64,000 bases of DNA from Plasmodiophora brassicae (GCA_036867785.1 CP145423.1:62001-126000); one strand, 5' to 3'. Shown: positions 4,937-63,598, counted from the first letter of the stretch. The notes: generated by a model from the letters alone, not told the origin. Numbers and translations: made by a program.

Positions 4937-6220
4937 CTACTGATGGTCGCTTGCCTCGTGGTGCCTCCTGCTGTCATCGCTGACGAACGATGCGCGATGG
5001 TGCGCGTTAGCGACATCATGATGGTCTCCGGCGTCGCGATCCCTGGAATCCCTCCTGTGATGCTCGTTCTCGTGATTATGGCTATCGTGGTGCTCGTTCG
5101 AATGCGAATCCGTCCCGATAACACTGGCACTGATCGATGCGGTCGTCATCACCTTCGCCTTGTCCTTGGCGACGCCTTCGACTTCTTCCACGCCCTCGTT
5201 GGCGTGCGCCGCTTCGTTCTCGACCTTCTCGCTCCCATGGTGGCCGTCATCCACGTTCGCGGCGTCCAAATGATCGTGTCCGAGCTCGTGCCCGTGGCCG
5301 TGGCCGTGGCCATCATCATTGTGGTCGTGCAGGTGAGACATGCGGAACCCATGGAAGTGCCCCCCATCGTGATGCTCGTCGCCGTCGTCGTCATTGTCGT
5401 GGTCACGCAGATGCGATGTGTGGAAGCCATGGAACATCTCATGGTCGCTCTCATGCTCGTGGTGCCCCTCGTCGCCGTGGCGACGATCGGCGCCGTGGTG
5501 GAACATGCCATGGTCATGATCATCGAACATGTGGTGATCCCGGCCGAACATGTGCCCATCGTCCCAGGCGTCGTCGTCGAAGCGGAACTCGTCGATCTCG
5601 TCGTGCATATCGTCAAAGTCGTCGTCATAGTCGTCATGGTCGAATTCGTGATCCCAGCCGTGGTCATCGTGACCGCCGTGGTCGTCATGACCGCCGTGGT
5701 CGTCGTGACCGCCGTGGTCGTCGTGACCGCCGTGGTCGTCGTGACCGTCGTGGTCATCGTGACCGCCGTGGTCGTCGTCCCCATGGTGATGGTTTTCGTT
5801 GTCATGGTGACCTTCGTCGTCGTGGTGATGGCCTTCATGCTCGCGGTGGTCGCCGTCCTGATGGTCATGGTCATGCTCGCCCAGATGGCCCTGGTGGTCG
5901 CCATCATGGTGATGGTCCCCGTGGTGCCCTTCTCCATGACGATCGTGCCCGTCGTGGTCATCATCATCATCAGTACCGTCATGGTGAGGATCACGGTGGT
6001 CGACTTCCCAGTCGAAACGCTCATCATCCTCATCGTCCAGGTCGCGCTCCAGGCGCAGGTCGTCGTGGTCGTCGTGGTCGGCCTCGTGCCGATGGGACAG
6101 GAGGTGCCCCCGGCGATTCATCCCGCTCAGGCGGTGGTGTCCGAAACGGCCGTGGCCGACGGCCTGCACGGCCACAGCCAGCATCACGAGGCATAGCAGA
6201 ACGCGTAGTACGCCTTGCAT
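4937..6220 (-). CDS. Secreted His/Asp-rich protein 1 (427 aa)
   Basis: Single ORF. Signal-peptide-like MQGVLRVLLCLVMLAVAVQA. Mature part dominated by H/D/G/E with GGHDDH repeats and no Cys. Confidence 0.85.
   Translation of the reverse strand: MQGVLRVLLCLVMLAVAVQAVGHGRFGHHRLSGMNRRGHLLSHRHEADHDDHDDLRLERDLDDEDDERFDWEVDHRDPHHDGTDDDDDHDGHDRHGEGHHGDHHHDGDHQGHLGEHDHDHQDGDHREHEGHHHDDEGHHDNENHHHGDDDHGGHDDHDGHDDHGGHDDHGGHDDHGGHDDHGGHDDHGWDHEFDHDDYDDDFDDMHDEIDEFRFDDDAWDDGHMFGRDHHMFDDHDHGMFHHGADRRHGDEGHHEHESDHEMFHGFHTSHLRDHDNDDDGDEHHDGGHFHGFRMSHLHDHNDDGHGHGHGHELGHDHLDAANVDDGHHGSEKVENEAAHANEGVEEVEGVAKDKAKVMTTASISASVIGTDSHSNEHHDSHNHENEHHRRDSRDRDAGDHHDVANAHHRASFVSDDSRRHHEASDHQ
5658..5778 (-). repeat. 18-bp coding tandem repeat (GGHDDH, ~7 copies)
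   Basis: Plus-strand unit ccgtggtcgtcgtgaccg repeated with minor variants. Confidence 0.9.
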
Positions 6221-6306
6221 TGGTCAAATTACAGATATGTTACGTTTGACAGGGCCCAGCGACCTGGGTGGCGATTCGACTTGCACCAAGCACACCCCAT
6301 CCAGTG

Positions 6307-6313
6307 TGACTCA
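6307..6313. promoter_or_regulatory. TGACTCA (AP-1/GCN4-type bZIP site) upstream of His-rich gene 1
   Basis: Exact match ~90 bp upstream of the ATG at 6220; recurs before every His-rich gene. Confidence 0.6.
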
Positions 6314-6373
6314 TCCAGGTGACTCCAGCGCCCTGGTGAGCCGGTCTCAATCGGCGGCGACTCGTCTGTATTG

Positions 6374-6925
6374 CTACGTGTGCGGGCCTCGCCCCGATCG
6401 TCGTGCCAGACTCGTGTCAAGGCGAGCAACGGGTCGGTAGGCGCCGGCGAAGGCGCGGGCGATGCCGGCGGCGATCTCGTCGAGATCGTCGTGCAGGACG
6501 TCAGGGGACGCACCGCAGCAGGCGCAACGGTTCGCGCGCCTCGAGCAGGACCCGCACAGGGATACGCTCGACCAGGCCGTGGCGATCGTCGACGCGCAAC
6601 TCGTACACGACGCCTGCGACCGTCCCAGGCAGACTCGCTTCGGGCCGCGATGCCGATGGCACAGTGCGTACTCATCGTCGTTGGGGATATCGACCGATGG
6701 GCACGGCTGCACCCGCAGGGCGCCGTCGTCGGGCGTGGCCGGCGACTTCACGACGATGCTGTGCCGCTGGGCGGGATTGGCGTAATTGACAACCAGGTCA
6801 GCTCTGGCCAGGAACGGTGCCGGTTTGCCCTTGCTTGGCGTCGTGTCGTCATCCGGTGGGACTTTTGCGATGTTGTCGTCGGCGTCCTCGACGACCGCCG
6901 GAGGAACCACGCCGACATCGCCCAT
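6374..6925 (-). CDS. Small protein with CRIPT-like Cys-rich zinc-binding motif
   Basis: MGDVGVV... ORF containing CTSC-x12-CGSC-x6-CACC (three CxxC pairs, CRIPT-like spacing). Confidence 0.6.
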   Translation of the reverse strand: MGDVGVVPPAVVEDADDNIAKVPPDDDTTPSKGKPAPFLARADLVVNYANPAQRHSIVVKSPATPDDGALRVQPCPSVDIPNDDEYALCHRHRGPKRVCLGRSQASCTSCASTIATAWSSVSLCGSCSRRANRCACCGASPDVLHDDLDEIAAGIARAFAGAYRPVARLDTSLARRSGRGPHT

Positions 6926-7129
6926 TATGCAGACTGTATATAGGTCAGGTACCATAGGCGATCCGCTCGCCCGGTGGCAACCCTTTGCTGACGACGATGT
7001 ACATAGGACGGGAATGCTCCTCGTCAGCAATGGCACGTCTGTGATGCACCGCAGGTGTCCGATGCGGTACGGTGGACGGCAACACGGGTGGAGAATCTCG
7101 CCCGATCGATCGGTAGACGGTCGGTGACG

Positions 7130-7575
7130 ATGGGCGAACGCGACGACCAGCGCCTTCTACCTGTTGCTGATGTCGCTCACGCCGCTGCCGAGCCTACACC
7201 GGCGGCAACGAGCGCCGCCATGGAAGTGAAACTCAGGACCGTGACGGGGCAGACGCTGGTCGTCCACGACGTCCAGGACGGCATGACAACCGACGATCTC
7301 AAGGTACGCGTTTCTGTTGCACCTCCGCCCCCCAGGCGATCGTCCTGATTGGGGGTTCGTTCCGCAGGGGCTCGTCGAGCGCCAGCACATGGTGCCAAGC
7401 GACCTGCAGCGACTGATCTTCAACGGGCGCGAATTGCAGGCCGGCGACGTCATCAAGGATGCTGGCATCCAGGCAGGGTCGATCCTGCATATCGCCATAC
7501 GCCAGGTGCGCGGAACGTATTCCAGCCTATCCTGATGACACCGGGCCCGGTCAGCCCTGATGAACCTCGCAGCAG

Positions 7576-7617
<42 letters not shown>

Positions 7618-8521: not shown

Positions 8522-8592
8522 ACACGTCGGTCCTGGGGGCGACTGGGTCGCCATTCGATCACGACGGTACGCGTACTGCCTAGCGCCTGGGG

Positions 8593-10313
8593 ATGTACGT
8601 CTTCCCGGTGTCGCCGATCACGCCGACGAACCACAGGCTGACCGCGGCCGAGTGCTCCGCTTGGTTCCAGTCGGTGCGGCCGGCCGCGTCCTACCCCGAC
8701 GACGAGCAGCGATCGGTGCCCGCACCGGCGCGAACACGTCCGCGCTGTCGGCGCCCACGCCCGACACCACTGCCCGTGTCGCAGGCGCGATCGTGGGCGA
8801 CGCCTCGCTTGGCGCCGACGTCGTTCCCGTCGTACGCACCGATGGCGATCGCGCACGCGCCGTCGCACGTCGACAGGTGGCCGGTGGCCGCCTCGCGGCT
8901 GGTGGCGTTCCCGGAGCGCCCGCCGACGCCGAACACGCTGCTGGACGAGATCCTGTCGCCGCGTACGCCCGTCACCTGCCTGCCGTTGCACCCGCCGGCG
9001 ACGACGACGGCGCGGCGCCGCCACCATCAGCTGTTGCCGTGTCACAGCGCCGTCGTGCTCGGGGGCGACACGCGCGGCCAACGCCGACCGTCGTACTGGG
9101 TCCCGACGCGACCCGGCACCGATCGAGCGATTCGCAAGGCGGCGCCGTCTGCCCGGATCGGCCGGGCGTCGCGGCGCCTGGCGTCCCCGCCGCCGACGCC
9201 CGGCCCGGGGGCGTTCACCGTCGAGTACGACGCCGTCCTGCCCCGGGCGCCCGCCCCCATCCTGCCCCTCAACGAGGCGCCACCGCAGACGTCGAAGCGA
9301 CCGATCCGGTACGTTCGCCAAGGGCGCGGGCGTCGCTGGCTGACGTTGTCGGTGGCGTACAGGGCGACGAGCGCCGCCGTGCTGCCGTTAGCGGAGCGCG
9401 TCAAGCGGGACCGGGCGCGTTCCGCCGATGCCCAGCGACGGCGCCGGGCATTGGAATCGGCGCGACGCGCCCGGTTAGACGACGCACAGGGCGCGTCGGG
9501 GCGCGAGGAGCCCGGCGACGGGCGGTCGCGGCGATGGCTGGCCGTGACGGCCGCCATTCTGGCCGCGCACGCGTTGACAGACGGCGCGAGGAGCGTTCGC
9601 ACCCCCCGGCTCAGGGTACGGTGCGCGTGTGCGCCCGCCCCCGTTCGGGTATCGTGACGATACGCCCATAGTTCCGGGACGCGGCCATCATTGTCACGCG
9701 CCTGCAATGCTGGGTGCTTCGTTCGCAGGCGTCGGCGCGTGGCATGGCAATCGAGGAGCTGGACCGTGAGCAGTTCAGCCAGCGGCGCCGGGCGGTCGTA
9801 CGGGAGCATCGGGTCGCGGCGCTCAAGTGCCTCGTCGACCTGTTCGACAACGCCACGCTCCGGGCGACGTTCTTCAGGTCGATTCACCGCGTCCTGGACT
9901 CGGTCACCGTCCTGCAACGATGGTGGCGACGCGTGCGCCTCGTTCGACGGGCGCGCCTCGACTTCATCCGGCGTCTGATCCGCGCGGCGATCACGTGTCG
10001 TCGCCTGCGCGTGCGTCGATCGCGGCGCTGCGCCCTGCTGGAGAACATCATCGTGTCGCAGATGGTGGACACGGTCTACGTCGAGGCGCAGCGCGCGTTC
10101 CGCGACGTGAACAAGCGCCGCATGGCGGGGATCGCCATCGAGATCGCCCCCGACACCGGCCTGCTGCGCCGTGAGTGCTGGTTCCGCATGCCGCTGCTGC
10201 ACCGGCGCGGGCAGTGGCGCGCCAGGATCGTCGCGGCGCTGAAGACGGCCCGGCCCAGGAAGGGCGCTCGACAGGTGGCCGTGGCACGCACAAGGCGCCG
10301 CGGCGAGCGGTGA
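8593..10313 (+). CDS. Pro/Arg-rich protein with SHIPPO-like PGPG repeat and IQ-like motif (possibly flagellar)
   Basis: 'TPGPGAFTVEYDAV' in ORF 8593-9657. The second exon contains 'VTVLQRWWRRVRLVRR'. Putative intron ~9616-9729. Confidence 0.55.
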
Positions 10314-10465
10314 CGGACTGGCGGGCCCTGTCTCCGCAGTGCGCGCAACTACAATCGCGCACCGCGCACTTTCGTTTTGCGCGACTCGCGTGTGGGACCA
10401 CAAATAGCATCTGGGTCGACCGACCCCAGCCCCCAGGTAGGAATGCGACAATGAATTCGGTATAG

Positions 10466-15121: not shown

Positions 15122-15356
15122 CTATTTTCAACTGTGTCGATTGTCCACATTGCATTGCGAGCAGTCGTCGTGGGCTGTGCGCGCCACCACATGACCGTTG
15201 CCGCCGTACAATGCCTGAGGTGGCCTGAGAAGGGCGCCCTGGACCTTGACACGGTCTGAGACGACGCGTTTGTGGCTATCGATCATTTGCAGAAGTTGGG
15301 TCGCGAAATATGGTAGCTAAGGAACGTACCAGGTCGACGATGCCGTATTCGTTGAT

Positions 15357-16481
15357 TCATTTCAGAGTGAATGCAAAGCGGCCGACCAGGGGTAGGTGGT
15401 CACTGCTGTGAATAGCATGGACGGCGGCGACGAACTCGAGGTTGGCCTGGTCGGGGTCGAACAGGATCTGATCCGTCCACGAGACGGGCCTGGTCGCGTC
15501 GTAGCAGACCCGGCCGGGGCCACAGTTGCCATCGGCCACGGGAGCATCCCAGTCGCGAACCTTCAGCAACCTGCCGATGTCGATGCAGGCGCTGGTGTCC
15601 ATGCACAGGCGGGTGTCAGGTCGAACCAGCAGTTTATAGGTTGGCAGGTGCAGGCCAGCCGTGCAGACCAGTCCACGCAGGCTGTTCACACGGCCGACCA
15701 ACGCCCGCGTCATCTCATCCTGGGCGACGAGATCGTGCCACGAGTGGCACTTCGCAACAATGTCGGACACGTTCGCCGTTGTCGTCGGGGAATCCGTTCG
15801 CGAATTCAGATCGCCGATCAGGAATCGGGCACTGCAACCGTCCCACATGGGCCCGAGCTGACCGCCCCGGAAGGCATGTCGCAGGCAAGCCACGCGCGAC
15901 TTCATGTTGGCGCTGGGCAGATGCGCCGACAGGAAGCAGAGGCGGTGGCCGGACCCGGTGGTTAATGCCACGGCGGATATCGCTTTCTCGCCTCGCGACC
16001 ACCACCGACAGTAGGACGTCCCCGATGTCACCCGTGGGATGGTGCTGTTGTTGGACGATGCGCGTCGCAAGACGACGACCCCGGATAGGTGATGGCCCCA
16101 GGTGCGGACGTGTTTGGGGACCCACTGGCCCCATCGTGACGTTGCCTCGCCGACAACGTCGTATCGCGTGCGTCGCTCCGCGAAATAGTGATCGTTGACG
16201 GCGTCGCGAATCCAGTCGGCGACCGCCCGCCGGGGTCGTATGCGCGCCTCCTGTACGCCGAACACGATCAGCTCGGGGAGGCTGTCCGCGTCGTCGTCGG
16301 CGGGCAGGCCGTGCAGGGCGAACCGCAGCGCCCTGGCGACCTCGACGCCAGACGGGAACCCATCCGCCAGGTTCCAGGTCAGCAGGACGACCCGCCCAGG
16401 GGCCCCAGCAGCGATCGCCGACGCAAGGCACACGGCGACGGAGACGACGACGACGCCCCTGCAACGGGTAGCGCCGCCCAT
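15357..16481 (-). CDS. Secreted inositol polyphosphate 5-phosphatase-like EEP enzyme (copy A)
   Basis: Signal peptide MGGATRCRGVVVVSVAVCLASAIA. Motifs LLTWNLA, FGVQEA, FLSAHL, IGDLNSR, PTYK, PVSWTDQI, SDHLP. Intronless. Confidence 0.85.
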   Translation of the reverse strand: MGGATRCRGVVVVSVAVCLASAIAAGAPGRVVLLTWNLADGFPSGVEVARALRFALHGLPADDDADSLPELIVFGVQEARIRPRRAVADWIRDAVNDHYFAERRTRYDVVGEATSRWGQWVPKHVRTWGHHLSGVVVLRRASSNNSTIPRVTSGTSYCRWWSRGEKAISAVALTTGSGHRLCFLSAHLPSANMKSRVACLRHAFRGGQLGPMWDGCSARFLIGDLNSRTDSPTTTANVSDIVAKCHSWHDLVAQDEMTRALVGRVNSLRGLVCTAGLHLPTYKLLVRPDTRLCMDTSACIDIGRLLKVRDWDAPVADGNCGPGRVCYDATRPVSWTDQILFDPDQANLEFVAAVHAIHSSDHLPLVGRFAFTLK

Positions 16482-16569
16482 CGACGTCCGCGCGCGACAC
16501 AAAAGCGCCTTCGGACAACGAACGGGAGCGGTGCTCCTCCTACGTACCAGGCGCGGCGGTTTATACATT

Positions 16570-17673
16570 TCAGTCCAGATCGACGGTGAAGCGGCCGGCC
16601 AGCGGCAGGTGGTCACTGGTATGGACGCCGTGGACGGCGGCGACGAACTCGAGGTCGGCCCGGTCGGGGTCGAACAGGATCTGATCCGTCCAGGAGACGG
16701 GCCTGGTCGGGTCGTAGCAGATCCGGTCCTCGCCGCAGTTGCCGTCGGCGTGCGGGACGTCCCAGCGGTGTACGGCGAGGAACCGTTGCACGTCGACGCA
16801 GGTGCTGGCCGTTAGGCAAACGTTGCTGTTGTGTCGCAGCATCTTGTAGGTGGGAAGGTGGAGGCCAGCCGTGCCCGTCAATCCTCGCATGTGGGCGACC
16901 TTGCCGGTCAGCTCGTGCGTCATTTCGTCGCGGGCAACCAACGCGTCCCAGGACGGGCGTCGGTCGGCAATGTCAAAGACGTGGGCCGCTGCGGTCCTGC
17001 CGGTTCGCGAATTGAAGTCGCCGATCATGAATCGTGTATCGCAGGCGTCCCACAACTGCCCGAGTTCGTCGTGTTGGAATCCGTGCTGGAGGCACGCGAG
17101 TCGCGCGTCGCTCGTTGCGCTCGGCAGGTGCGCCGACAGGAAGCAGAATCGACGAGGTCCCGCCGTTAACGTCACCAGGGTGATGGCCTTCTCGCCTCGT
17201 GACCACCTGCGGCAGTACGATGTTTTAGCTGTCATGCGCGTGGCCACCTTGGACGATTCGCGTCGCAGGACAACGATGCCCGATAGGAAATGACCCTTTT
17301 CCTGGAAACGCCTGGGGATCCATCCTCCCCAACGCGACGCTGCTGCACCAACCACTTCGTACCGGGTTTGACGAGCCTTGAAGTAGTGATCATTGATCGC
17401 GTCGCGAACCCATTGAGCAATGCGCTGCTCGGATAGGTTCGCCTCCTGAAGGCCAATAACAATGAATTCGGGCAGGGAGCTCGAATCATCTGGCAGGCCG
17501 TGTAGGGCGAATTGCATCGCCTGCCTGATCTCGGCACCGTCCGGGAACCCATCGGCCAGGTTCCACGTCAGCAAGACAATTCGCGCGGATCCCTTGTCGA
17601 GCGTCGACCTCGACAGACCATAGGCGACGCAGGTAAGGGCAACAATGTTGCGAAATACATAAGCGCTCCCCAT
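16570..17673 (-). CDS. Secreted inositol polyphosphate 5-phosphatase-like EEP enzyme (copy B)
   Basis: Signal-like MGSAYVFRNIVALTCVAYGLS. Same motif set (IGLQEA, IGDFNSR, PTYK, PVSWTDQI, SDHLP). Tandem paralog of copy A. Confidence 0.87.
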   Translation of the reverse strand: MGSAYVFRNIVALTCVAYGLSRSTLDKGSARIVLLTWNLADGFPDGAEIRQAMQFALHGLPDDSSSLPEFIVIGLQEANLSEQRIAQWVRDAINDHYFKARQTRYEVVGAAASRWGGWIPRRFQEKGHFLSGIVVLRRESSKVATRMTAKTSYCRRWSRGEKAITLVTLTAGPRRFCFLSAHLPSATSDARLACLQHGFQHDELGQLWDACDTRFMIGDFNSRTGRTAAAHVFDIADRRPSWDALVARDEMTHELTGKVAHMRGLTGTAGLHLPTYKMLRHNSNVCLTASTCVDVQRFLAVHRWDVPHADGNCGEDRICYDPTRPVSWTDQILFDPDRADLEFVAAVHGVHTSDHLPLAGRFTVDLD

Positions 17674-18163
17674 TGCTTGCAGCGTCTCCCGTCTGGTGGC
17701 GTCGAATAGTTACAAGTGTGCGTTCGCTGGAACGATGGCCCTGGGTGCCGGACCCGCTTCCGTCCACATGCCATGACAACTGATTCCAGTATCGATCCAG
17801 GTCGTCAGGCAGCCAACGATTAATCCATCGACGGCGAAAGCACGCGCCATACTGTGGCAGTGTCCACAGCAAAGCAGCGAGTGTGTTAAGTTGTGACAAT
17901 CCAAAGCAACGTATCGACAGAGAGATGTTCGGCGCCCGGCTCGCGGCTTCAACGACCACAGACCAGTGCCCGATGTACACCCTTGCAATTGCGCTTCAGT
18001 TCGTCGTGGTGCAATGCGTATCGCCACTCTAAAGTCGGTGTACAATGTAGGCATGCTGTGCGCGCCGATGCGACATCGGAGATGACCCACGTTCCAGCCC
18101 ATCCGTACGCCCTACGTGGAGGACGACAGGACCATGTCAACAGGGGAGGACCAGTCGGAACCG

Positions 18164-18170
18164 TGACTCA
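18164..18170. promoter_or_regulatory. TGACTCA upstream of His/Asp-rich gene 2
   Basis: Exact match ~120 bp before ATG 18288. Confidence 0.6.
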
Positions 18171-18287
18171 CGATCCGGGCGAAATTCGTGCCAGTGAACA
18201 CGGGCGCCCCCATTCCAGCAATCGTCCTGCTGACTTTGGTCGGTCGTCGCGATCACCATCGTCCCGTCCCCCGCCCTGCCGACACGA

Positions 18288-18779
18288 ATGCCACTCCACA
18301 TTCGCGTGCCGCAATGCATCCTGCTGCTGTTGTTGGGGGCCCTGGCCATCAGGTCCGGTTTCGGCCAGGACCTGTTCGGCCTAGGCCCCGACGACGACGA
18401 CGACGACGCGTATGCGCATGATGTCGAACACGACCACGGGTACGAGCACGACCTGCGCAATGACGACAAGGTCGCCGATCAGGCGCACACCACCGGGCAA
18501 CACGTTGCCACGGGGGTCGTAACCACGACGGCCACAGGGACAGCAGAGCACATCGACGAGAGCCACTCCCGGCAAGATCGATCCCACGATCACCTCCGGC
18601 TGAAAGCCAAAGCTGAGACGGACGCCAGCGACGCATTGGCGACGAACGCGGCCGCACCGGTCGGCGACGTGCACGCACCGCTGCCGGGCAACGAACACCC
18701 GGGAACCATCGCACCACCCGTCCTCGAGAACAGAGCCCTGGCGCCACACGCCCAATGGACTGGACTGCATGGCATGTAG
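18288..18779 (+). CDS. Secreted His/Asp-rich protein 2 (163 aa; 3' end uncertain)
   Basis: MPLHIRVPQCILLLLLGALAIRSGFG signal, then DDDDDDAYAHDVEHDHGYEHD... and a Thr-rich segment. Confidence 0.7.
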   Translation: MPLHIRVPQCILLLLLGALAIRSGFGQDLFGLGPDDDDDDAYAHDVEHDHGYEHDLRNDDKVADQAHTTGQHVATGVVTTTATGTAEHIDESHSRQDRSHDHLRLKAKAETDASDALATNAAAPVGDVHAPLPGNEHPGTIAPPVLENRALAPHAQWTGLHGM

Positions 18780-19195: not shown

Positions 19196-19666
19196 TCAGT
19201 GGTGGTCGCCATGGTCGCGGAACGCTCTGTACTCGCGCAGCGCCCTCATCTCGTCCTCGCTGAGGAACTCGGTGCTGTGCGGGATGCCGTCCTCGTGGTG
19301 CATGTGATGGTCGACGTCGGGTTCAGCGTGGTGCGGGTGGTGACGAGGGTGATGGTCCTCGTCGATGTGGTGATGGTCGTGCATTGCGTGCCATTCGTCG
19401 GCCGGCGACGGATGGTGCTCGTGATGGTGGTCATCGTGGTGGTGATCATCGTGATGGCGATCCTCGTGATGGTGGTGGTGTTCGGGCAGGTCGAAGAGCG
19501 TCAGCGCGTCGCCGTCGGGCATGGGGAAATCACGTAGCGCATACACGGCATGGTTATCGTTATCAACGTGGCCATCGCCGTGATCGACCCAGATCAGCGT
19601 GTCACCGGCCAGCACGACGCCGACCAGCACCGCCAGCGCCGCCGTCGTCACCAGCATCTTCCTCAT
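19196..19666 (-). CDS. Secreted His/Asp-rich protein 3 (156 aa)
   Basis: MRKMLVTTAALAVLVGVVLA signal. Mature 'GDTLIWVDHGDGHVD...EHHHHHEDRHHDDHHHDDHHHEHH'. No Cys. Confidence 0.85.
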   Translation of the reverse strand: MRKMLVTTAALAVLVGVVLAGDTLIWVDHGDGHVDNDNHAVYALRDFPMPDGDALTLFDLPEHHHHHEDRHHDDHHHDDHHHEHHPSPADEWHAMHDHHHIDEDHHPRHHPHHAEPDVDHHMHHEDGIPHSTEFLSEDEMRALREYRAFRDHGDHH

Positions 19667-19777: not shown

Positions 19778-19784
19778 TGACTCA
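19778..19784. promoter_or_regulatory. TGACTCA in the divergent promoter between His-rich gene 3 and the ankyrin gene
   Basis: Exact match ~112 bp from ATG 19666 and ~116 bp from ATG 19900. Confidence 0.55.
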
Positions 19785-19899: not shown

Positions 19900-21273
19900 A
19901 TGTCGGAGTCGGTGTTCCAGGCGGCCGCCCGAGGCGATGTTCGCATGCTGCGCCTTCTGATCCGCAAGGGCCACATGGATGACGCCGACGACGAGGGCAA
20001 CACGCCGCTGATGATTGCAACGCGATGCAATCGACCGCAGGCCGTCGCCATCCTCCTCGAGCGCCAGGCGAACGTCAACCAGGTCAATGCGCATGGCGAC
20101 GGCGCGTTGCACATTGCGGCCCAGAAGGGTAACGTTGAAGGGGAGCTGCGAGGGAAGGCACCTGTCGCTGACGTTGCTTGCCGCACGCCCAGGGATCATG
20201 CATGTATCGATTATTCGCATGCTGATCGAAGCGGGCGCGAACGTCACCTCGCAGAACGCGGACAGGGAGTCGCCCGTGTCGCTGATAGCGAAGAACACGA
20301 AGCTGGCCCGGCATCCGACGATAGCGCCCCTGCTGGAGAAGCGCCTCGCCGCCAATCGCCTACGTCGAAAGGTTTGGCGGGAACCTGTCGTTCGTAGGGT
20401 GCTTGCTACGACGCCCTTACGACAGTGGCCAGTCAACGATGCGTCTGTCGAGCATGGGGCGCTACCAGAAACAGGTCGAGCAGCTCCAGAAGAAGAAGAA
20501 GGAGAACGCGTTGAACGTTTACTCGCGAGCGGAAGACATGACGAGCTTCAAACAGATCTGGGAGATCCTGACCAGGTGGGACGGGCGCTGCTCTCGTGGC
20601 CGGTCGTTACATTTACAGGTGCACCGTTGTGTGTGTAGGTCCCCGGCGGAATCGTCGACGACGCTGGCAGCCGAGACGCTGACACCCTTCTTCAACCTGC
20701 TGGGGGCATCACTGAGCCCGGTAACCCGATCGCATAGACCGCACGACGCCGGTGCCTCTGATCAACCCGTTTTCAGCCCGAGACGGCGGCCCTCTTCGAC
20801 CTGCTGGACGACGACCAGGACGGTTCCGTGGACTTTAGCGACTTCTACATGTCGATGGTCGGCCGGGCACGCTGCTGTCATAGCTTCGTACACACGTGTG
20901 TGAATGGGGCACACGTTGTCAGATGTGGCGCAAACCGCCGGACGCGCTGGAGTCTGCCGCCATCGACCTGCCGTTCGAGGTCCTCGACTCGTGCGCCGGG
21001 ACGCAGGACCCGACCGGCATCATCGCGAAGTCGTCCTACAAGGCGGCGCAGCGCGCCCTGGGCCCCGTGTTCTTCGCCGACAGCGAACGCGACACGTTCC
21101 GCATCCTGTCCAGCCTCGTGCCCGGCTACGCCAACGCCGTCCGCCTCGACACGCACGCGGGCATCGACCGCAAGCTCTTCCTTCGCATCGTCAGCGGCCG
21201 CGCCGAGCTCCAACTTCGGAAACCGGCCCAGACGCAGGGCGCACCGCAAGCACAATCGTCATCGATCCAATAG
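19900..21273 (+). CDS. Ankyrin-repeat plus EF-hand protein (multi-exon)
   Basis: Ankyrin motifs 'GNTPLMIAT', 'GDGALHIAAQKG', 'LIEAGANVT'. EF-hand 'DDDQDGSVDFSDF' at ~20806-20845. Several GT-AG introns. Confidence 0.8.
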
Positions 21274-21529
21274 ACGCGTATAATAGTAACGTATCGGTGT
21301 GTCACCCCTTTTCCCTGTGATAAACTCTGTCGAGCGACACTGATTGAAGCGGACGAACATTGCTGGCGGCCGGTGCACCGCTGGCGGTTGCATATCATCG
21401 GCAGGACGGCATACAGTGGGCGATGTGGAGCGACAGTGGATGCGGTCAGACGACGGCCCGTTGCGTCACGCGGGCGAATCAGCGATCACGGCGGGGCCTG
21501 TGTGCGTCACGCTGGGGGAATCCCGTATG

Positions 21530-21536
21530 TGACTCA
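21530..21536. promoter_or_regulatory. TGACTCA upstream of His-rich gene 4 (plus TGCGTCA variants at 21462 and 21503)
   Basis: Exact match ~130 bp before ATG 21666. Confidence 0.6.
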
Positions 21537-21665: not shown

Positions 21666-22548
21666 ATGGCGAGGTTGGTGTTGCTGTTCCCGCTCCTGGT
21701 CGCGCTCCTGGCGGCCGCCGCCGTGGCCGACGGCGAGCACGCCGAAGAGATGCTGAACAGGAAGGATTCCGACGCGGTTCGTGGGGCGAACCACGTCGAC
21801 ATGCACGATTTCGAGCAGGGGGCGCACCGGGGCGCGAACTCGATCGACCAGATCGGGGGCGACAAGAGCACGGTGCAGACGACGGCCCAGCTGACGGCGG
21901 CGATGACCGCCTCGGACGCCCACGCCGACTCGTACTCGCAGCTGCTGGACGACCAGCACGAGGTCGAGGCCGAGACGGAGCACGACCACGAAGGTGGCCG
22001 CGACTCGCAGCTCGGCGTACACCATGGCGTTAACAGCGACGTCGACGTCAACGGCGATGCCCACCTTCGTCACGACATGGTCGCGCCGCACCGCCTCCAC
22101 CAGAACGACTGGGATGGCATCGAGGTACGCCCCCGCTCGACACGTGGTTGCTGCTGCCTCTGGGGTTCTGACGAGTCGCGTTTCGCTTCAGTACGAACAG
22201 ATGCACGGGCCGCACGGCTGGGGCCACGAGCACGCGGGCCACTACCACAACGACCTGCTGGGCGAGGAGGATGCCGGCGCCATGCTGATGCACGGCGGCG
22301 ACGAGTTCAACCACGATGGCCCGCACGACCAGTGGTACGGGCACGGGCACGGGCACGACGAGTACGGGCAGCACGGGTGGGACGGCGAGCACATGCACCC
22401 GATGGCCGACGACGGGTTCGTCTACGACCACCGGCACGGGGACCCGTACATGCACCACCATGGCCATGGCGGCGACTTCCACGGCATGCACGGCCATGGC
22501 GGCGAGTTCGAGGGCGACATGATGCCCTGGATCGCCGGCGGGCACTAA
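21666..22548 (+). CDS. Secreted His/Gly/Asp-rich protein 4 (exons 21666-22124 and 22192-22548)
   Basis: Signal MARLVLLFPLLVALLAAAAVA. The phase-0 GT-AG intron 22125-22191 joins to YEQMHGPHGWGHEHAGHYH...WIAGGH*. No Cys. Confidence 0.88.
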
Positions 22549-22954: not shown

Positions 22955-22997
22955 TGACTCAAGCCAAAGGGATTCTGTGATCTCTCATGTTGAGTCA
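22955..22997. promoter_or_regulatory. Two AP-1-type sites (TGACTCA 22955-22961, TGAGTCA 22991-22997)
   Basis: Exact matches ~155-200 bp upstream of ATG 23153. Confidence 0.55.
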
Positions 22998-23152
22998 ACG
23001 CAGGGACAGAGTGCCATGACGCTGACTAGGTACGAGTTTTCGTTGGCGAGTGACGCGTTGGCCCCATTCCAGTAATTATCTCAGACGGACGACGTACCTG
23101 CACACACACACACCCACACACACTGCCGAACATCCTATCTCGTCAATCAGTA

Positions 23153-23986
23153 ATGCCAGTCCCGCGTTCGGCCATCGCGCTCGGCCTGCTGGCAGCCACC
23201 GCCCTCATCGCCGTCACCGTGGATTCGCACGAGTACCACGACGGCCCCGCCATCAACGTCAACATTGCTCAGAAGACGAGTGACGAATTCAACAAGGGCG
23301 GATCAGGCGGCAGCAGGTCCAGGTCGTCGTCCGCGTCCAAGTCAGTAATGTGTTCAGCGGCCAAGAAGACCATTCACGTCGACCCGGCGAAGGTCACCGA
23401 TTACATCCAAGCGGGTGCCACGCTGGGCAAATGCGTCGCCGTCCCGAAGCCGGCACCAGCACAGGCGTCGGCGGCGCCTGCCGATCCACCGGGTGCGGAT
23501 CCTGAACCCGAGCCAGTTCCAGTGCCAACGCCGGCACCGGCAACGACGAAATCGCCAATGGTCCCCGTCTGCATCCCGCACCTTGGTGGGTCCACGATCA
23601 TGGTCCCGTCCGCCACGTTGCAGGCGTTCCTATCCAAGGGTGCCGTCCTGGGTAACTGCACAGCGATGAGCACAGTGGCACCGACGCCGGCACCGACGCC
23701 GGCGCCGACGCCCAAACCGACGACACCGGCGCCAACGACGACGATGCCGACAACGCCGCCGACGTTGTTGCCAACGACGCAGCCGACGCTGATGCCGCAA
23801 ATCATTCGGATCGGTGGTGAGGACTGTGAGTCGGGCGGCGACAATGACCCGACGCCGTACGGGATGGGCAATCGACGCGGGCGCGTCGAGATGCCCGTTC
23901 GAGCTGGAGCGCCGATGACGGCGGGTGGCCATGACGTGATTCCACAGGCGGCCGCCCCAAGCGTCCCCCGAATCCTGTCCCCGTGA
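23153..23986 (+). CDS. Secreted Pro/Thr-rich (mucin-like) protein with two small Cys-bounded repeats
   Basis: Signal MPVPRSAIALGLLAATALIAVTVDS. Repeats 'VMC...TIHV...YIQAGATLGKC' and 'VPVC...TIMV...FLSKGAVLGNC'. PTPA/PTT linkers. Confidence 0.82.
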   Translation: MPVPRSAIALGLLAATALIAVTVDSHEYHDGPAINVNIAQKTSDEFNKGGSGGSRSRSSSASKSVMCSAAKKTIHVDPAKVTDYIQAGATLGKCVAVPKPAPAQASAAPADPPGADPEPEPVPVPTPAPATTKSPMVPVCIPHLGGSTIMVPSATLQAFLSKGAVLGNCTAMSTVAPTPAPTPAPTPKPTTPAPTTTMPTTPPTLLPTTQPTLMPQIIRIGGEDCESGGDNDPTPYGMGNRRGRVEMPVRAGAPMTAGGHDVIPQAAAPSVPRILSP

Positions 23987-24860
23987 TCGATAGCATCCCA
24001 CACAATTACTATTAAAACCAGAAGGCGTGCCATCAGCCATGACGTTGTGCCGTTCGTGTTGAGGAAGCCCTGAACGCAGGCCAACTGAGCATGTGGTGCT
24101 ACTTGCAAGACAGCGGGCCTACAGTGCTCCTCGTTGGCAGTATTGGCCATGAAAGGTCTGCGATGGTGGGTAGCGATGTGATCGGAAATCACAACGCGAC
24201 GTCGCAGGCACGAAATGAGGACACGTGCACAACCCTGAAGTACATCGTCGGCATCCAATTCGGGCCAGCCGGCAAGAACACGACTGATACGAATGCGCAG
24301 CCGACGACGTACTCGAGGGCCATGCCCATGGCGTCTCCCCAGGATCGGCAACCTCTTGTCCATCGATACTGATGAAGGCGGTTTAAATCTCGCACAAACG
24401 TGAATCGCAGAGCAATTGTGTGGTGCAATGCGACTGTCTGTCGTGCTTGGTGAAGGTGGCCCGGTCGACTATACACTCGTGTCGAGGCGGTGCGTGCTAA
24501 TCGAACCCAACGCCAGCGGTGCGGAACCCTTGACCAGTTGGAACCTTCCGGAAAACACAACACGTACACGCGACACCATTGTCTTGTGTTCTGCGGTAGC
24601 CTTCAACTACTTATGGACCCGTGGCCGAGGCAAAACCGGGGCCACGACTGAATCAGCAATCTGCAGCCGGACAGTCAACGAACGCTGGGACAATGGTCCA
24701 TGGAGACGCCGACACGCGTCCGAAAGGAACGCCGGAGAAACGGCAGAGCATCAGGCCGCGCGGATGCCGTGGCGGAGTGCGCCACCCGCGTACCTAATAT
24801 TCAATACAGAAGGTAGACTGGAACGCTCCGCCTGGAAAGTCCGTGACGGACCAGCCGATC

Positions 24861-28017: not shown

Positions 28018-28347
28018 TCAGTGGTACCGGTCGTGGTGGTGATCAAAGTGCGGGTAACCGTCTTCGTCGTCGTACCCGTGTGCCATGCCCATCATCTCAT
28101 GGGCGGAAAGCGGGTGCCCGTGCCCGTGGTGTTCGCCGTCCCCGTAGTCATCGTCGTGGTTGTGAGGGACTGGGGCGTGATCCTGCACGTCAATGTCAAC
28201 CTCGACCTCGTGCTCCTTGCCTTCGTTGTGGGCTGCGTCCTCTCGATGATGCTTGTCCTGCCGGAAGTCGTCCTCGTCGGCGACGACCAGCGATGCACCA
28301 AGCAGCAGAGCAAACGCGACAGCAGCAACGGCAACACCGACCTTCAT
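28018..28347 (-). CDS. Secreted His/Asp-rich protein 5 (109 aa)
   Basis: Signal MKVGVAVAAVAFALLLGASLVVA. Mature DEDDFRQDKHH...EVEVDIDVQDH...HHHDRYH*. No Cys. Confidence 0.85.
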   Translation of the reverse strand: MKVGVAVAAVAFALLLGASLVVADEDDFRQDKHHREDAAHNEGKEHEVEVDIDVQDHAPVPHNHDDDYGDGEHHGHGHPLSAHEMMGMAHGYDDEDGYPHFDHHHDRYH

Positions 28348-28414: not shown

Positions 28415-28848
28415 TGACTCATCTGGGGCAGCGTGACATCACGCCGATGCTGTCTCGAACTACCGGCAATGGGAGCTGGCAGAGAGAGAGAGAGAGAGAC
28501 AAGTTCCATTGGTGTTGGCCTGCGTTAAAAGCGCGAAACGCATAAAAACTAAACTAAACTAACTGCCGTTGGTGTCTCTCCAAAGTGCAATGCAATCTGG
28601 AAATCGTACTGGAAACGTGCTGTCTTGTACGATGAAGGCGAGCGCAGCACCGTCCCTTTGCCATGAGGTCATGTTGGACGCTGCCTTTATGCTTTCGTTT
28701 CGTCGGAACGACGCGACACGTTTCGATTGGCGTCATTGTACAGTACAAGTTAGAGCACGTCTCGCCGCCGATAAGCCGGATATACTCAGAGTCCATAATG
28801 AAGGGACGATGAGAGTTGCAGTAGTGTGACTCACGACATCGTGAGTCA
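28415..28848. promoter_or_regulatory. Divergent promoter of His-rich genes 5 and 6, with three AP-1-type sites and one CRE-like site
   Basis: TGACTCA 28415-28421, TGACATCACGCC 28434-28445, TGACTCA 28827-28833, TGAGTCA 28842-28848. (GA)n microsatellite at ~28481-28499. Confidence 0.62.
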
Positions 28849-28928: not shown

Positions 28929-29462
28929 ATGGCGATAATGTCGACAAGAGTTGCCCTTGCACTGGCCGTTATCGTCGGTGTTGTTGCTGTATCGGGTTTC
29001 GATACCCACCACGATGACGGGTACCATCACGACCCCTACGCGCACCACGACGACGGGCTCCATCATCACGGTGACGGGCATCACCACGATCCGCACGAAC
29101 ATTATGACGATGACCATGATCACGAGGATTCGTCGCAAGGCCTTGATGTCCACGTTCATGTTCGGCGTCATGATCTAGCAGGTGAGAAGGACGGCCAACG
29201 TCTCGACCATGGCGTAGATACCGATGCGCATCATGGCCCCGAACACTACGACGAACATGGCGAATGGATGCCAGGACACGCCTTGCATGGACATGACGAT
29301 GGGCACCATGCTGACCATGGTGAGCATCACGACCCGCACCACGATCTCCACCACGAATACGACACGTTCCCGTTCGAGCACACACATCACGACCACGATC
29401 ACGATCACGACGATGACGCGTGGATGGACCACCTGTTGGGCCATGACGGCCACTTCCACTGA
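28929..29462 (+). CDS. Secreted His/Asp-rich protein 6 (177 aa)
   Basis: Signal MAIMSTRVALALAVIVGVVAVSG. Mature FDTHHDDGYHHD...LDVHVHVRRHD...HDHDHDHDDD...GHFH*. No Cys. Confidence 0.87.
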   Translation: MAIMSTRVALALAVIVGVVAVSGFDTHHDDGYHHDPYAHHDDGLHHHGDGHHHDPHEHYDDDHDHEDSSQGLDVHVHVRRHDLAGEKDGQRLDHGVDTDAHHGPEHYDEHGEWMPGHALHGHDDGHHADHGEHHDPHHDLHHEYDTFPFEHTHHDHDHDHDDDAWMDHLLGHDGHFH

Positions 29463-56319: not shown

Positions 56320-56424
56320 ACGAACTTAACTAAACAGGCAAGCGCGCAATCAGAGTACCCGTCCGCCCCCTGAACCACACAACGATGGATGATAAACGCA
56401 GCCTGGCCCGTCTTCATTGCACAA

Positions 56425-57294: not shown

Positions 57295-58269
57295 GATCGG
57301 TCGCCGCTAGACGAGCGCGCGCGCGCGCGTGTGCCAGTAATATGCTCTGAAATCGCGGGTCAGAGTGCCCCGTGACGCATGCGCGGCCACCGCCAGAGCG
57401 CCCCCCACAGACCCGACGGTCGATGCGTCTCGCCCGTCGTCGCTGTGATGATGCGGAACGGTGCCCCTTCCCGGGCTCCGGACTGGATCTGACGCCTGGG
57501 CGCGACCGTTTTTGTTGCGGGGACGACAACAAATGGCGACACGTCATCAGCCCCGTTTTTGTTGGCGTTTTGGTGTACGTGATCTGGTCTAGGTTCGTCG
57601 ACAGACCCGGGCCACCGCCAACAACAAAGGAACCCTTGACAGGGGCGGGAAATTTGAGCGGCAACTGGGCCGTTTGCCTTGGCACATGTGCCGCACGATT
57701 CGTCTCATTTCGCGAGGAACGTATATTCAGTAGATTGGTCCGGTTGGTTATGGTACGGGTCGGTAAGTCAAATTGAAGTCCGTGGAAGTGCGCAACATGC
57801 CGCGCGCGGACTCATTTAGCGCGACGGCCGACTTGCGTTTGAGTCACGCTCTGACTGGGCGAGTCGGTCCACGCGCCGCGCGACTGCCCATTTCGAATTG
57901 TGAATCACCGGCTCGCGAGGCGTCTCGTACGTCTTGACGACCAGGTTGTGGACACAGCTCTGAGCACTCTTAGCCGCTCTGTCGATCCTCTGGCTCGCAT
58001 GCTATGTAGAATCGGGACACTGGTGCGACCTCGAGTCCGCAGAGTGCCTCAGATCCGCAATCATAGGGCGCCCCGCACATATACCGCGCCGCACTGCCGT
58101 ACGGCGTCCGTGGCGCACCAATCCCATTTGCATCATTCTGCTATCTGGTCTTGTCTCGTCTTGTCCGTGTCCTGCGTGCTAATCGCTAGTTTTACGAATA
58201 GCGTTTGAAGACGCTCGCGACCGCCTCAGAGTCGAAACGGGTGAAACGCAGACTCACAGGCCGACAGTC

Positions 58270-61313: not shown

Positions 61314-62159
61314 AGGGCCCTGCGAACGTACGTTTCCCGGGCGGTGGCCAAATGGATGGTGCAAACTGCTGAGGCAGTACGATGGCGAAAACACAATGGC
61401 CGTACCGTACGTGGCGCTCAGCTGCCGTGTCACCGAGCGACGCGGACTAGGAACAGGCCCGGAAACGCATTACCTACGCGTGGTGTGTGCGAGTGCAAAT
61501 TAGGGGGGCCCGGGGCCGTGCACAATAGGCTGTGCCTCGACGAGAAGTTCGGACAGACCGCCAAGTTATAAACGGTAAACGGTATTAAGCGGTTCGTTGG
61601 CAGTTCGAGCAAAACGGTTTAGACCAATGGCTCCTTTCGGAACCTCAACGGGACGCGTGAGCGCGTATCACAACCCTCGCACAGCATGTACTTGGATTGC
61701 CGATGAACGGTTTGATGAAGGTCGCATTGACAGTGCTTACGGCATCGCAGATGCGCTTGGCGCGACCATACACTGGTGCGCTTTGAATTCGGGACCACGC
61801 CACGCCAAAGTGTCACACGCATATATACCTATGCCCACGTACTGCTCACATCAATTCAGTATTACCCACGCGTGGGCGATCGCTATCAGGGACAGACGGA
61901 TACTTGCACCGATGAAGTCGCTTGCGGACAGCTTGCGCAAAGGTCGGGTGCGCTCGGCACCAGGTTACCGTCAGAGGTAACGGCGGCGACATGCGTTGCC
62001 GTCGGTCCCGAATCTCCAGCGGTACGTCGAGAGCAAACATGACGCGCGAGCCGCGAGGCCATCTCCAGCCAATGGTCGCATAGTCCACGCCCTGCACAGC
62101 CACATTGGTAACGATACCTCTTCAGTAGAGAACTTGGAACGGCACGATCACAGGTTTCT

Positions 62160-62251
62160 GGCTGCGTGACCGAGTTGGTTAAGGTGGTAGATTCGAATCC
62201 TCGAAACATCTACTGGGCTTGCCCGCGCGCGTTCGAATCGCGTCGAAGCCT
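62160..62251 (+). tRNA. tRNA-Ser(CGA) with a 10-nt insertion at the canonical intron site; one acceptor-stem mismatch
   Basis: Identical to the 62569 copy except the insert TCCTCGAAAC (62198-62207) after position 37 and T>G at position 5. T-run terminator follows. Confidence 0.8.
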
Positions 62252-62568
62252 ACACTTTTTTGCCCATCGTCTCAAGTCATCGACCATCGTGGGACGACTG
62301 ACTGACTTGCGTCGTGTCTTGGAAACCGAATATGGATGGGATATGCGAATCCATCTGAACACGGCTGCAGGGTAGTAGGCATCAGAAGAAGAACTGATCA
62401 GACTTGTACCTGATGCTCGCCGTCAAACGCTGCTCTCTCACCCGTAAATGGGCGATCAGATGCAAGCCGAACATCAGATGCAAGCCGAATACAGCGCGCC
62501 GCCGCAACGAGGTTTAATAATAAACTTTGATAAAAAACTTTGCAAACCGTCCAAAGTGAGCGTGAGCT

Positions 62569-62650
62569 GGCTTCGTGACCGAGTTGGTTAAGGTGGTAGA
62601 TTCGAAATCTACTGGGCTTGCCCGCGCGCGTTCGAATCGCGTCGAAGCCT
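62569..62650 (+). tRNA. tRNA-Ser(CGA), intronless
   Basis: Acceptor GGCTTCG/CGAAGCC, anticodon arm GTAGA-TTCGAAA-TCTAC, variable arm GGGC-TT-GCCC, GTTCGAATC, T7 terminator. Confidence 0.95.
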
Positions 62651-62993
62651 TTGTTTTTTTGCTATTGATACAATGCTTCTCCGCTAAAAAAAACGATCGC
62701 CAACATCTGATGATGGGCACCCCCTCGGGTCGTAGGCCACTTTGGGCGGCGGCGACGATGTACGTTTTTCCCGATCCGTGTCATTGCTCTGACGAAAGTG
62801 GGGCAACTACATGGTCCTTGACGAAATGTGAAGAGATGGAGGACAAGTAAGGCTACCAGATGCCCGGGTCACTTGGGTCCAACTGGACTGTGGGTTCCTC
62901 GGGGAATGCTTCACATCACGCTGGCATACGGACGGTGGGCGGCATGGTTTATTCGGATCGTCCAGATAGAAACCCACATAGCCGCCGTTACAA

Positions 62994-63598
62994 TTACGCC
63001 CAGTGGCCGCTGCACACAAATCTCATCAGAAAGGGAGCTGACCGTCGTCCAGTGCCTCACGTACTGATGCCCATCGGTGGCGCCTTCGTAATGGTGGTCG
63101 CTGTTGGCAGCCAGTCAGATATGCATACACAACGTGGGCCACGTTACTTTGCACGTACTGTTCACCATCGGCGTCGTCGTGATATTCATGTTCGTGATCC
63201 TCCTCCTCGTCATCCTCCTCGCCCTGCCATCAGTGTGGTCAGTCTCTTTCACCATATACATGCCGTGCCGGCCACACTTACATCGTGATGGTAGCCGTGA
63301 GAGTGCGCGTCGCCTATCCAGAACCAGGACGATCAGAGTCACATTGCCACATTCACGCAGCAACGCAACGAACCGTGGTGATGGCGGTCGTGCTCCGCCC
63401 ACTCATCGCCGTGCACGTCTCGACTGCGAAACGCGTCACTTACCCGCATATAGACTGCGCCCTAAGATTCACTTACTGGTCGATATGGCCGTCACCGTGG
63501 AACACCTTCAGGCGCGTGTCGTCGGCGTCGACCCCGTTGAGGAACATCATGAGTACGAGGGCGATAGCCAGGAGCAACCCAAATGGGGACGACAACAT
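62994..63598 (-). CDS. Secreted His/Asp-rich protein 7 (6 exons, 106 aa; not in the ORF track)
   Basis: Exons 63598-63477, 63423-63374, 63313-63282, 63223-63159, 63100-63065, 63009-62994, joined by GT-AG introns of 53-60 nt, give MLSSPFGLLLAIALVLMMFLNGVDA-DDTRLKVFHGDGHIDHRDVHGDEWAEHDRHHHGDAHSHGYHHDGEEDDEEEDHEHEYHDDADGEHDHHYEGATDGHHGHWA*. Confidence 0.88.

Follow-up and report, generated by a model that had tools for sequence, protein, structure and literature searches.

Clubroot is a major Brassica disease, and to our knowledge almost no secreted protein of the parasite behind it has a known job. We have analysed a stretch of 64,000 nucleotides (nt) of Plasmodiophora brassicae DNA (GCA_036867785.1 CP145423.1:62001-126000; hereafter the window, with positions counted from its first letter) in which seven genes, labelled g1 to g7 in their order along it, encode predicted secreted proteins rich in histidine and aspartate. 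The window is eukaryotic DNA with a G+C content of 55-68%, and it is tied to its source organism by g4, whose spliced product of 271 amino acids (aa) has the same length and sequence as a database protein (P0006) and is the protein named PBTT_08748 (Plasmodiophora brassicae). This source fits with the occurrence of the stretch in sequencing runs labelled 'plant metagenome'.

All seven coding regions that an initial annotation of the window had proposed, with their coordinates and strands, were borne out (Table 1), and so were its statements that the genes carry between zero and five introns (none in five genes, one in g4, five in g7) and that six of them fall within 25 kb, the measured span being 24.5 kb. 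Gene structures were compared with contigs from four sequencing runs that are only presumed to be RNA and that were used for splice joints and cover; this comparison spans g2 to g6 (20 kb), with g1 and g7 outside it. Well-supported GT..AG joints of the contigs skip 51-68 nt, so that introns in the window are very short, in agreement with the published P. brassicae genome, for which the available part of the description gives introns of 60 bp, about four to a gene (PMC4471660). A contig joint at 22122>22190 (cut +2) in runs X15 and X18 supports the splicing of g4, while contig pieces over g2 break off in loose ends at 18388-18437 and were not counted as transcription of that gene. The six-exon structure of g7 is an in silico model, predicted from the fact that an open reading of 106 aa appears only when five introns are removed. 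Codon use in the seven genes resembles that of neighbouring genes with Pfam support (G+C at third codon positions 0.60-0.94 versus 0.60-0.93), with 181 CAC to 70 CAT codons; the opposite-strand frames are also open, but they encode runs of Val, Met and Ile. A six-frame scan of the window found no further peptide rich in His and acidic residues outside the seven, and three other His-dense stretches were rejected as His/Arg-rich reads in the wrong frame.

Each of the seven proteins starts in the manner of a signal peptide, with a stretch of 15-23 uncharged residues (best 12-residue Kyte-Doolittle value 2.92-3.33) and small residues ahead of a plausible cleavage point. A hydropathy scan revealed no later hydrophobic segment and no hydrophobic C-terminal tail in any of the seven, nor did their C-termini, read by eye, carry a KDEL/HDEL-type or other endoplasmic-reticulum (ER) retention ending. 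The hydrophobic signal peptide attributed earlier to the whole set is supported by hydropathy for all members, and for g4 also by its presence in a published secretome based on SignalP6. The mature parts contain 10-30% His and 13-23% Asp, and they are entirely devoid of Cys, as had been claimed, the single Cys of g1 and of g2 lying inside the signal peptide. Richness in His and Asp, which had likewise been ascribed to all seven, is clear in six (24% His and 23% Asp in g1, 21% and 20% in g5, 30% and 22% in g6) but weak in g2, an outlier in which the signal-peptide-like start is followed by a run of Asp and then by a Thr/Ala-rich part with 10% His and 15% Ala; Ala amounts to 4-8% of the mature part in the other six, and Tyr reaches 3-6% in several members. 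The layout of g3 comprises a signal peptide, a conserved N-terminal module (GDTLIWVDHGDGHVDNDNHAVYALRDFP), a core with 36% His and a C-terminal helix (LSEDEMRALREY). HG and GH pairs are enriched over shuffled sequence. Tandem Repeats Finder detected one array of 18-nt units in g1 (5657-5778, encoding 6.8 copies of HDDHGG) and weaker arrays in g1, g3 and g7, none of which spans most of a protein.

The proteins are strongly acidic, with calculated isoelectric points (pI) of 4.75-6.03, and their calculated charge depends steeply on pH: with the pKa of His set to 6.5, the net charge of g1 falls from +7 at pH 5.0 to -90 at pH 7.5, and that of g6 from +10 to -35 between pH 5 and 7.5. AlphaFold2 models have a mean predicted local distance difference test score (pLDDT) of 46.5 for g4 and 55.6 for g3, the latter reaching moderate confidence only in the signal peptide and the C-terminal helix (residues 137-153).

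The most useful new fact to emerge from this analysis is a promoter word. The AP-1/GCN4-type palindrome TGA(C/G)TCA (TGASTCA, S being C or G) occurs 11 times in the 64 kb, against a chance expectation of 8.63 +/- 2.81, and 10 of these sites lie 68-352 nt upstream of the ATGs of the seven genes and of a neighbouring open reading frame (ORF), 23153-23986, in such a way that all eight genes carry one or two sites upstream (Table 1). Three of the sites fall in the 581-nt spacer common to g5 and g6, which are arranged head to head. When 11 sites were placed at random, none of 200,000 trials reached nine within 200 nt or ten within 400 nt (maximum five), and a binomial estimate for this placement is about 5e-13, a statistic that outlives any reasonable correction for the post hoc discovery of the word. 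The sites differ from one another in their flanking sequence, which indicates that these promoters are not copies of one duplicated promoter, and the other signal-peptide-like starts in the window (16481-, 24323-, 35388-, 44328+ and 51344+) are not preceded by TGASTCA. A common promoter word before all seven genes supports a coordinated set of secreted proteins, in line with part of the earlier interpretation. It took a search of the entire window for the palindrome in the form TGASTCA to reveal the signal: in an unbiased, oriented count of 7-mers in the seven 300-nt upstream regions, made without the C/G degeneracy, the top word was found in four of the seven, as happens in about half of random sets. 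A related word, TGAYGTCA, was rejected as a shared element: besides its copies ahead of g5 and g7 it is found at other places, and its seven distinct sites are no more than chance. As a separate observation, the promoters of g5 and g7 have the 12-mer GGCGTGATGTCA in common, whose core TGATGTCA lies at 28434-28441 and, 79 nt ahead of the g7 ATG, at 63677-63684 and occurs three times in the window, the third copy being at 30693; this 12-mer may be a second promoter element shared by the two genes.

Table 1. Genes, exons, promoter words and neighbouring features of the window (aa, amino acids; nt, nucleotides; S, C or G)
Feature	Position	Strand	Description
g1	4937-6220	-	single exon, 427 aa
g2	18288-18779	+	single exon, 163 aa; exact sequence present in NCBI
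g3	19196-19666	-	single exon, 156 aa
g4	21666-22548	+	two exons, 271 aa
g4 exon 1	21666-22124	+	signal peptide and conserved DKSTVQTTAQLTAAMTASDAHADSYS module
g4 intron	22125-22191	+	67 nt, GT..AG; missing from contigs of runs X15 and X18
g4 exon 2	22192-22548	+	His/Gly/Asp-rich part, terminal MPWIAGGH
g5	28018-28347	-	single exon, 109 aa; exact sequence present in NCBI
g6	28929-29462	+	single exon, 177 aa; unspliced cover by contigs of runs X17 and X18
g7	62994-63598	-	six exons (in silico model), 106 aa, five GT..AG introns of 53-60 nt
g7 exons	63477-63598, 63374-63423, 63282-63313, 63159-63223, 63065-63100, 62994-63009	-	
g7 exon 1	63477-63598	-	signal peptide and DDTRLKVFHGDGHID
TGASTCA, g1	6307-6313		87 nt upstream of ATG
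TGASTCA, g2	18164-18170		118 nt upstream of ATG; spacer common with divergent phosphatase-like gene
TGASTCA, g3	19778-19784		112 nt upstream of ATG; 233-nt spacer common with divergent ankyrin-repeat gene
TGASTCA, g4	21530-21536		130 nt upstream of ATG
TGASTCA (two), ORF 23153-23986	22955-22961, 22991-22997		192 and 156 nt upstream
TGASTCA, g5	28415-28421		68 nt upstream of ATG
TGASTCA (two), g6	28827-28833, 28842-28848		96 and 81 nt upstream of ATG
TGASTCA, g7	63950-63956		352 nt upstream of ATG
ORF 23153-23986	23153-23986	+	277 aa; signal-peptide-like start; Pro/Thr/Ala-rich, 5 Cys; not His-rich; no Pfam match
Two tandem endonuclease/exonuclease/phosphatase-family genes	15360-17709	-	Pfam PF22669, E 1.7e-12 and 6.9e-13
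Ankyrin-repeat gene	19900-21300	+	Pfam Ank, E 2e-13; between g3 and g4
87-nt tandem repeat	33244-33864		7.1 copies, 92% identity, score 1005
201-nt tandem duplication	37632-38025		2.0 copies, 94% identity; in minus-strand ORF 37615-38532 (no Pfam match)

Kinship among the seven proteins is limited. When the mature parts were aligned locally in all 21 pairs and compared with composition-matched shuffles, only g3-g7 and g4-g6 rose above the shuffles (z 3.0), the other 19 pairs giving z values between -1.6 and 2.1. The first proposal that the genes are not recent duplicates stands, and their products are mostly not alignable to each other. Profile searches nevertheless uncovered two short protein modules. 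A hidden Markov model (HMM) of the g4 family matches g1 at residues 346-387 (KDKAKVMTTASISASVIGTDSHS...) with 17.2 bits and an E value of 3e-4 in a set of 1,244 six-frame pieces, where the runner-up has 3.4, so that the C-terminal module DKxxVxTTAxxxAS..D.H of g1 would be a diverged copy of the DKST..TA.LTA..D.H module of g4. Similarly, an HMM of the g3-type N-terminal module made without g7 matches the first exon of g7 (DDTRLKVFHGDGHID; E 4e-4, next best 1.4), while the other five genes gave no match better than E 1. The g4-type module is doubtful in g2, with E 0.026 from the full profile and nothing from the core profile, and g3, g5, g6 and g7 gave no match. As judged from sequence, the two modules link g1 with g4 and g3 with g7, and the remaining likeness is compositional; g5 and g6 have no module link to other members, and g5 is tied to them by the promoter word only. 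The pentapeptide HGDGH is found in g3, g6 and g7 (P=0.0005 against shuffles for a motif chosen post hoc), so that the short motifs said to be shared do exist in these three proteins and in the two modules linking four genes, but elsewhere what had been called motif sharing amounts to likeness in composition.

Relatives were found in other organisms. The search with g3 returned a single outside protein, P0005; identity is 71% across the N-terminal 29% of the query, and the C-terminal LSEDEM..RE helix is common to both proteins. A metagenome scan with the g3 alignment added one further relative, L001, whose ORF encodes a signal peptide, then GDTLIWVDHGDGHIDN and then His/Gly/Asp repeats (22% His, 15% Asp). 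The g3-type family (g3, P0005 and the L001 ORF, joined by g7 through the profile match) is marked by the module GDTLIWVDHGDGH[IV]DN directly after the signal peptide. For the non-repetitive half of g4, four outside proteins with 32-52% identity were found among 1.84 billion representatives, and a profile search yielded a fifth relative; the module of this family, G.DKST.QT.A.LTA.MTA.D.H.DSYS, also follows the signal peptide (sequence cluster 167 of PMC12503489). Its invariant core in g4 and the four relatives is G.D....T.A...A...A.D.H.DSYS, and a PW[IV]..G.H ending is common to g4 and three of the four. The His-rich parts of the relatives do not align with those of g3 and g4, yet their composition persists: the core of P0005 has 32% His versus 36% in g3, His makes up 15-19% of what follows the module in the g4 relatives, and mature Cys is absent from all relatives examined. 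Conservation of modules and composition, though not of the His-rich sequence itself, is the pattern expected of selection on composition plus short modules, and the proposed kind of protein, secreted, His-rich and acidic, Cys-free, is accordingly recognizable elsewhere in P0005, L001 and the g4 relatives. A homology search with g6 gave no match among 394 candidates, and the best scores in a protein atlas (0.78 for g3; 0.79 for g6, to arthropod 'histidine-rich glycoprotein-like' proteins) lay below a meaningful level and were discarded. As to L001 itself (1-1596), an actin gene is present as its 3' half (2-571), with the g3-type His-rich gene (about 756-1511) on the same strand; the contig may come from a very compact genome or be a chimeric transcript assembly.

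Some of these genes are already known as anonymous disordered orphans of the P. brassicae secretome, directly in the case of g4 and by inference for g2, g3, g5 and g7. The available part of PMC12503489 describes a secretome of 806 proteins defined with SignalP6 and DeepTMHMM, among them PBTT_08748, that is g4, with a pLDDT of 44.6 and the IUPred3 class 'Disordered'; other orphans in that class are PBTT_08746, 08747, 08749, 08752 and 08766 (pLDDT 49-63), which have Polymyxa or Spongospora partners, and, further off, PBTT_08734 and PBTT_08735 (PMC12503489). Gene order can be anchored at PBTT_08744 (374 aa, endonuclease/exonuclease/phosphatase), which corresponds to the 374-aa ORF 15360-16481(-), and at PBTT_08765 (417-aa ankyrin), which corresponds to the ankyrin gene near 60 kb. 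On that order, 08746 would be g2, 08747 g3, 08749 ORF 23153-23986, 08752 g5 and 08766 g7, with one misfit, in that the ankyrin-repeat ORF 19900-20397(+) between g3 and g4 is left without a number; g1 and g6 have no exact sequence in the protein collection and were matched to no locus tag. Gene numbers with the prefix 'jg' usually follow gene order. In the BLAST-based clusters of PMC12503489, the partners of 08748 are the Polymyxa proteins jg7874 and jg7762 and a Spongospora protein; those of 08746 are jg3600 and a Spongospora protein, while 08747 is grouped with jg7876, 08766 with jg7877 and 08752 with jg7759. If these numbers do reflect gene order, the counterparts of g4, g3 and g7 (jg7874, jg7876 and jg7877) are neighbours in Polymyxa betae too. 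Secreted proteins account for six of the nine tags from 08744 to 08752 (P 1.4e-5) and for 8 of 23 (P 2e-4), given 806 secreted among at least 10,515 numbered genes and tag ranges chosen post hoc. The accessible portion of another study, a 2026 preprint, places small groups of uncharacterised effectors in the core parts of chromosomes 12 and 19 (10.64898/2026.10.14.759018). While g4 is listed in the secretome study, the available part of that account does not mention His richness, the common promoter word or the grouping of these genes (PMC12503489), and our literature search found no paper linking histidine-rich proteins or the TGASTCA word to plasmodiophorids; within the library searched, PMC12503489 alone uses these locus tags.

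Taken together, we favour the reading that these genes form a co-regulated set and encode secreted, disordered polyanions with pH-switchable metal binding, to which we assign a probability of roughly 0.45. Its two parts are not equally firm: that a real co-regulated secreted set exists is highly probable, while metal handling as the function under selection is a tentative proposal read from the sequences, to which we would give somewhat less than even odds. The eight genes (the seven and ORF 23153-23986) would constitute one regulon switched by a bZIP-type factor, bZIP proteins of the AP-1/GCN4 type being the factor class that reads TGA(C/G)TCA in yeast and animals. The products would exit the parasite cell and would bind divalent metal ions (Zn, Cu, Ni and possibly Ca) weakly, with high capacity and low specificity, by means of many His imidazoles together with Asp and Glu carboxylates. 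Binding would be gated by pH, the calculated net charge being about neutral at pH 5-6 and strongly negative at pH 7-7.5, and its purpose might be the capture, buffering or withholding of metal at the parasite-host interface.

Several observations weigh against this reading. The TGASTCA motif was discovered in these very promoters and its statistics hold within the 64-kb window; the eleventh site (57840-57846) has no signal-peptide-like start or His-rich exon within 400 nt; and L001, the only outside relative for which flanking DNA was available, has no TGASTCA in its 1,596 nt, though this contig may be a transcript. Two presumed members of the regulon, g2 and ORF 23153-23986, are not His-rich, and with only two of 21 pairs exceeding shuffles the sequences do not appear to support a single common origin of the seven. 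With respect to metal binding, no Pfam family, and hence no metal-binding domain, was matched at E<=0.01 by g1, g2, g3, g4 exon 2, g5 or g6 (at E<=10 there were only sub-threshold hits: Zip with 9.3 bits versus 35.1, DUF1120 with 11 versus 21 and DUF4307 with 13 versus 27), a PDB search with g1 gave no match at E<=10, and His spacings of the types HH, HxH, HxxH and HxxxH are the same as in shuffles (P 0.10-0.73), so that no defined site geometry is apparent.

Other functions would account for part of the same evidence. The proteins might instead be a structural matrix, co-deposited in the resting-spore wall, a cyst coat or the Stachel/Rohr apparatus and cross-linked via His-metal bridges or His-Tyr/quinone chemistry. 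We regard this as unlikely, although the promoter word is common with a Pro/Thr-rich, Cys-bearing, mucin-like secreted protein of the kind typical of walls and coats, the proteins are conserved between plasmodiophorids, and the Tyr content of several members would suit such chemistry. Strains are moreover near-identical here (in the contig of run X18, no differences over g6 in 561 nt and 2 in 1,800 nt from g4 exon 2 to 23989, with 45 in 2,069 nt in the phosphatase-like neighbours at 15342-17407), which suits a structural or physiological role better, if weakly, than an arms-race effector. Against such a matrix stand the strongly acidic, Asp-rich nature of the proteins, which sets them apart from the Gly/His-rich proteins of jaws and beaks, and the lack of repeat architecture beyond the 18-nt array in g1. 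A more specific version would make the set the matrix of an extracellular device that hardens or is triggered, either the wall of the resting spore or the injection apparatus (Stachel/Rohr), with His-metal bridges that set or release near pH 6-7; this seems improbable. Were it true, the proteins could explain at the molecular level why raised soil pH and calcium suppress clubroot, an agronomic fact, since the protonation of His and the binding of Ca or Zn both vary steeply in that pH range. A role as host-directed disordered effectors acting by charge, through pH-switchable condensation or binding to basic host proteins or membranes, with metal binding incidental, is rather unlikely as well. 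The proteins are predicted to be secreted and disordered, they place variable low-complexity cores between short conserved modules in the way of linear-motif effectors, and the available part of 10.1101/2025.11.18.684874 finds disordered regions to be common among effector candidates inside host cells, but that same part names none of these proteins; they lack a host-targeting motif, of which none is known for P. brassicae according to the accessible text of PMC4471660, and nothing points to diversification between the two strains compared.

There is a very small chance that the proteins serve as an amino-acid reserve, His/Asp-rich material in the secretory pathway storing histidine and nitrogen for spores that germinate without a host. 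The word TGACTCA is the response element of Gcn4, the amino-acid-starvation factor of yeast, and this would fit such a store. So would the lack of histidine biosynthesis genes in plasmodiophorids, as given in the available part of PMC4471660; the proteins are small and few, however, and conserved N- and C-terminal modules are unexpected in a mere store. Equally improbable, and already disfavoured, is that no common function exists, the genes being unrelated orphans that converged in composition by codon-repeat slippage and lie near each other by chance: 19 of the 21 pairs do not rise above shuffles, g6 finds no relative and g5 is linked by its promoter alone, but a single tandem array, weaker ones apart, was found in the seven genes, orthologues keep the composition though the sequence differs, the promoter word precedes all seven genes, and g3, g4 and g7 have counterparts with neighbouring gene numbers in Polymyxa betae.

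The combination of features in the favoured metal-binding reading has partial precedents. The closest match in composition is HRC, the histidine-rich calcium-binding protein of the sarcoplasmic reticulum, which has a signal peptide and a low-complexity part of His and acidic residues and binds cations with high capacity and low affinity; the present proteins differ in having neither a Cys-rich tail nor an ER-retention ending, in matching, across g1 to g6, no Pfam His-rich repeat model at E<=10, and in belonging to a protist parasite rather than to muscle. HRP2 and HRP3 of Plasmodium falciparum are likewise signal-peptide-bearing, His-rich, low-complexity proteins of an intracellular parasite, and these exported proteins bind zinc and haem. 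HRP2 is built of Ala-His-Asp tandem repeats, whereas our proteins have 4-8% Ala (15% in g2), 13-23% Asp and almost no tandem repeats, and the searches found no sequence relation; membership of the HRP2 type was rejected, since Tandem Repeats Finder detected no Ala-His-Asp repeats forming most of any protein. Fungal zincophores (Pra1/AspF2) and bacterial Hpn are also His-rich, secreted or stored, and capture or buffer Zn or Ni, but Pra1 has a folded domain, of a kind not detected here, and Hpn is cytoplasmic and contains Cys. On all features compared, the present proteins fall outside the HRP2, HRC and zincophore types. The hardening proteins of worm jaws and squid beaks are Gly/His-rich, secreted and Cys-poor, and when set against their general description our proteins agree in high His content, secretion and scarcity of Cys, but are polyanions (pI 4.75-6.03) with as much Asp as His. 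In terms of regulation, Tetrahymena metallothionein promoters provide an analogy only, namely protist genes for metal-binding proteins with repeated, AP-1-like sites of the TGA.TCA type that are thought to be read by bZIP factors, as described in the available part of PMC6205968; metallothioneins are Cys-rich and intracellular, and the motif given there has A at its centre (GTGTGAATCATGAGT).

These findings do not only offer a regulatory handle, in that eight genes with one promoter word open a route to the rest of the regulon and to its transcription factor, but also yield in pH-gated metal binding a simple biochemical hypothesis. Up to 30% histidine in the proteins of a parasite reported, in the available text, to lack histidine synthesis (PMC4471660) would mean a heavy draw on the host, and this suggests an important role. 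The set would further constitute an example of selection on composition, in which different genera retain the short modules and the overall amino-acid composition, the His-rich sequence being free to vary.

Among the neighbouring features, ORF 23153-23986 contains two stretches that resemble each other and are bounded by Cys, C...IHVDPAKV..YIQAGATLGKC and C...IMVPSATLQAFLSKGAVLGNC, with a Pro/Thr linker after each of them, which by sequence we take to be an internal duplication of a small unnamed domain. A contig of run X19 (22984-24737) runs antisense across this ORF with a joint from 24068 to 24122 whose CT..AC ends are those of a minus-strand intron; its spliced minus-strand read gave no convincing ORF. 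Of the tandem phosphatase genes, the first (15360-16481, 374 aa) begins in a signal-peptide-like way and agrees in length with the secreted PBTT_08744, and the second has no such start. Lying just upstream of g1, ORF 3773-4258(-) has an end (..YHFVREKLNEKVVEIQYIELEKIIADILTKPFG) that recalls the C-terminus of copia-type retrotransposon polyproteins, which Pfam did not confirm; this label, as well as 'cyclophilin-like' and 'DRG-like' for other neighbours, was dropped after Pfam searches on the ORF pieces tested. The stretch from 57.8 to 59.9 kb, which includes the eleventh TGASTCA site, holds no clear gene. Finally, the 87-nt tandem repeat is part of a long minus-strand frame (32933-34759) that is rich in Ser, Ala, Arg and Thr and has a weak match to DUF3645.

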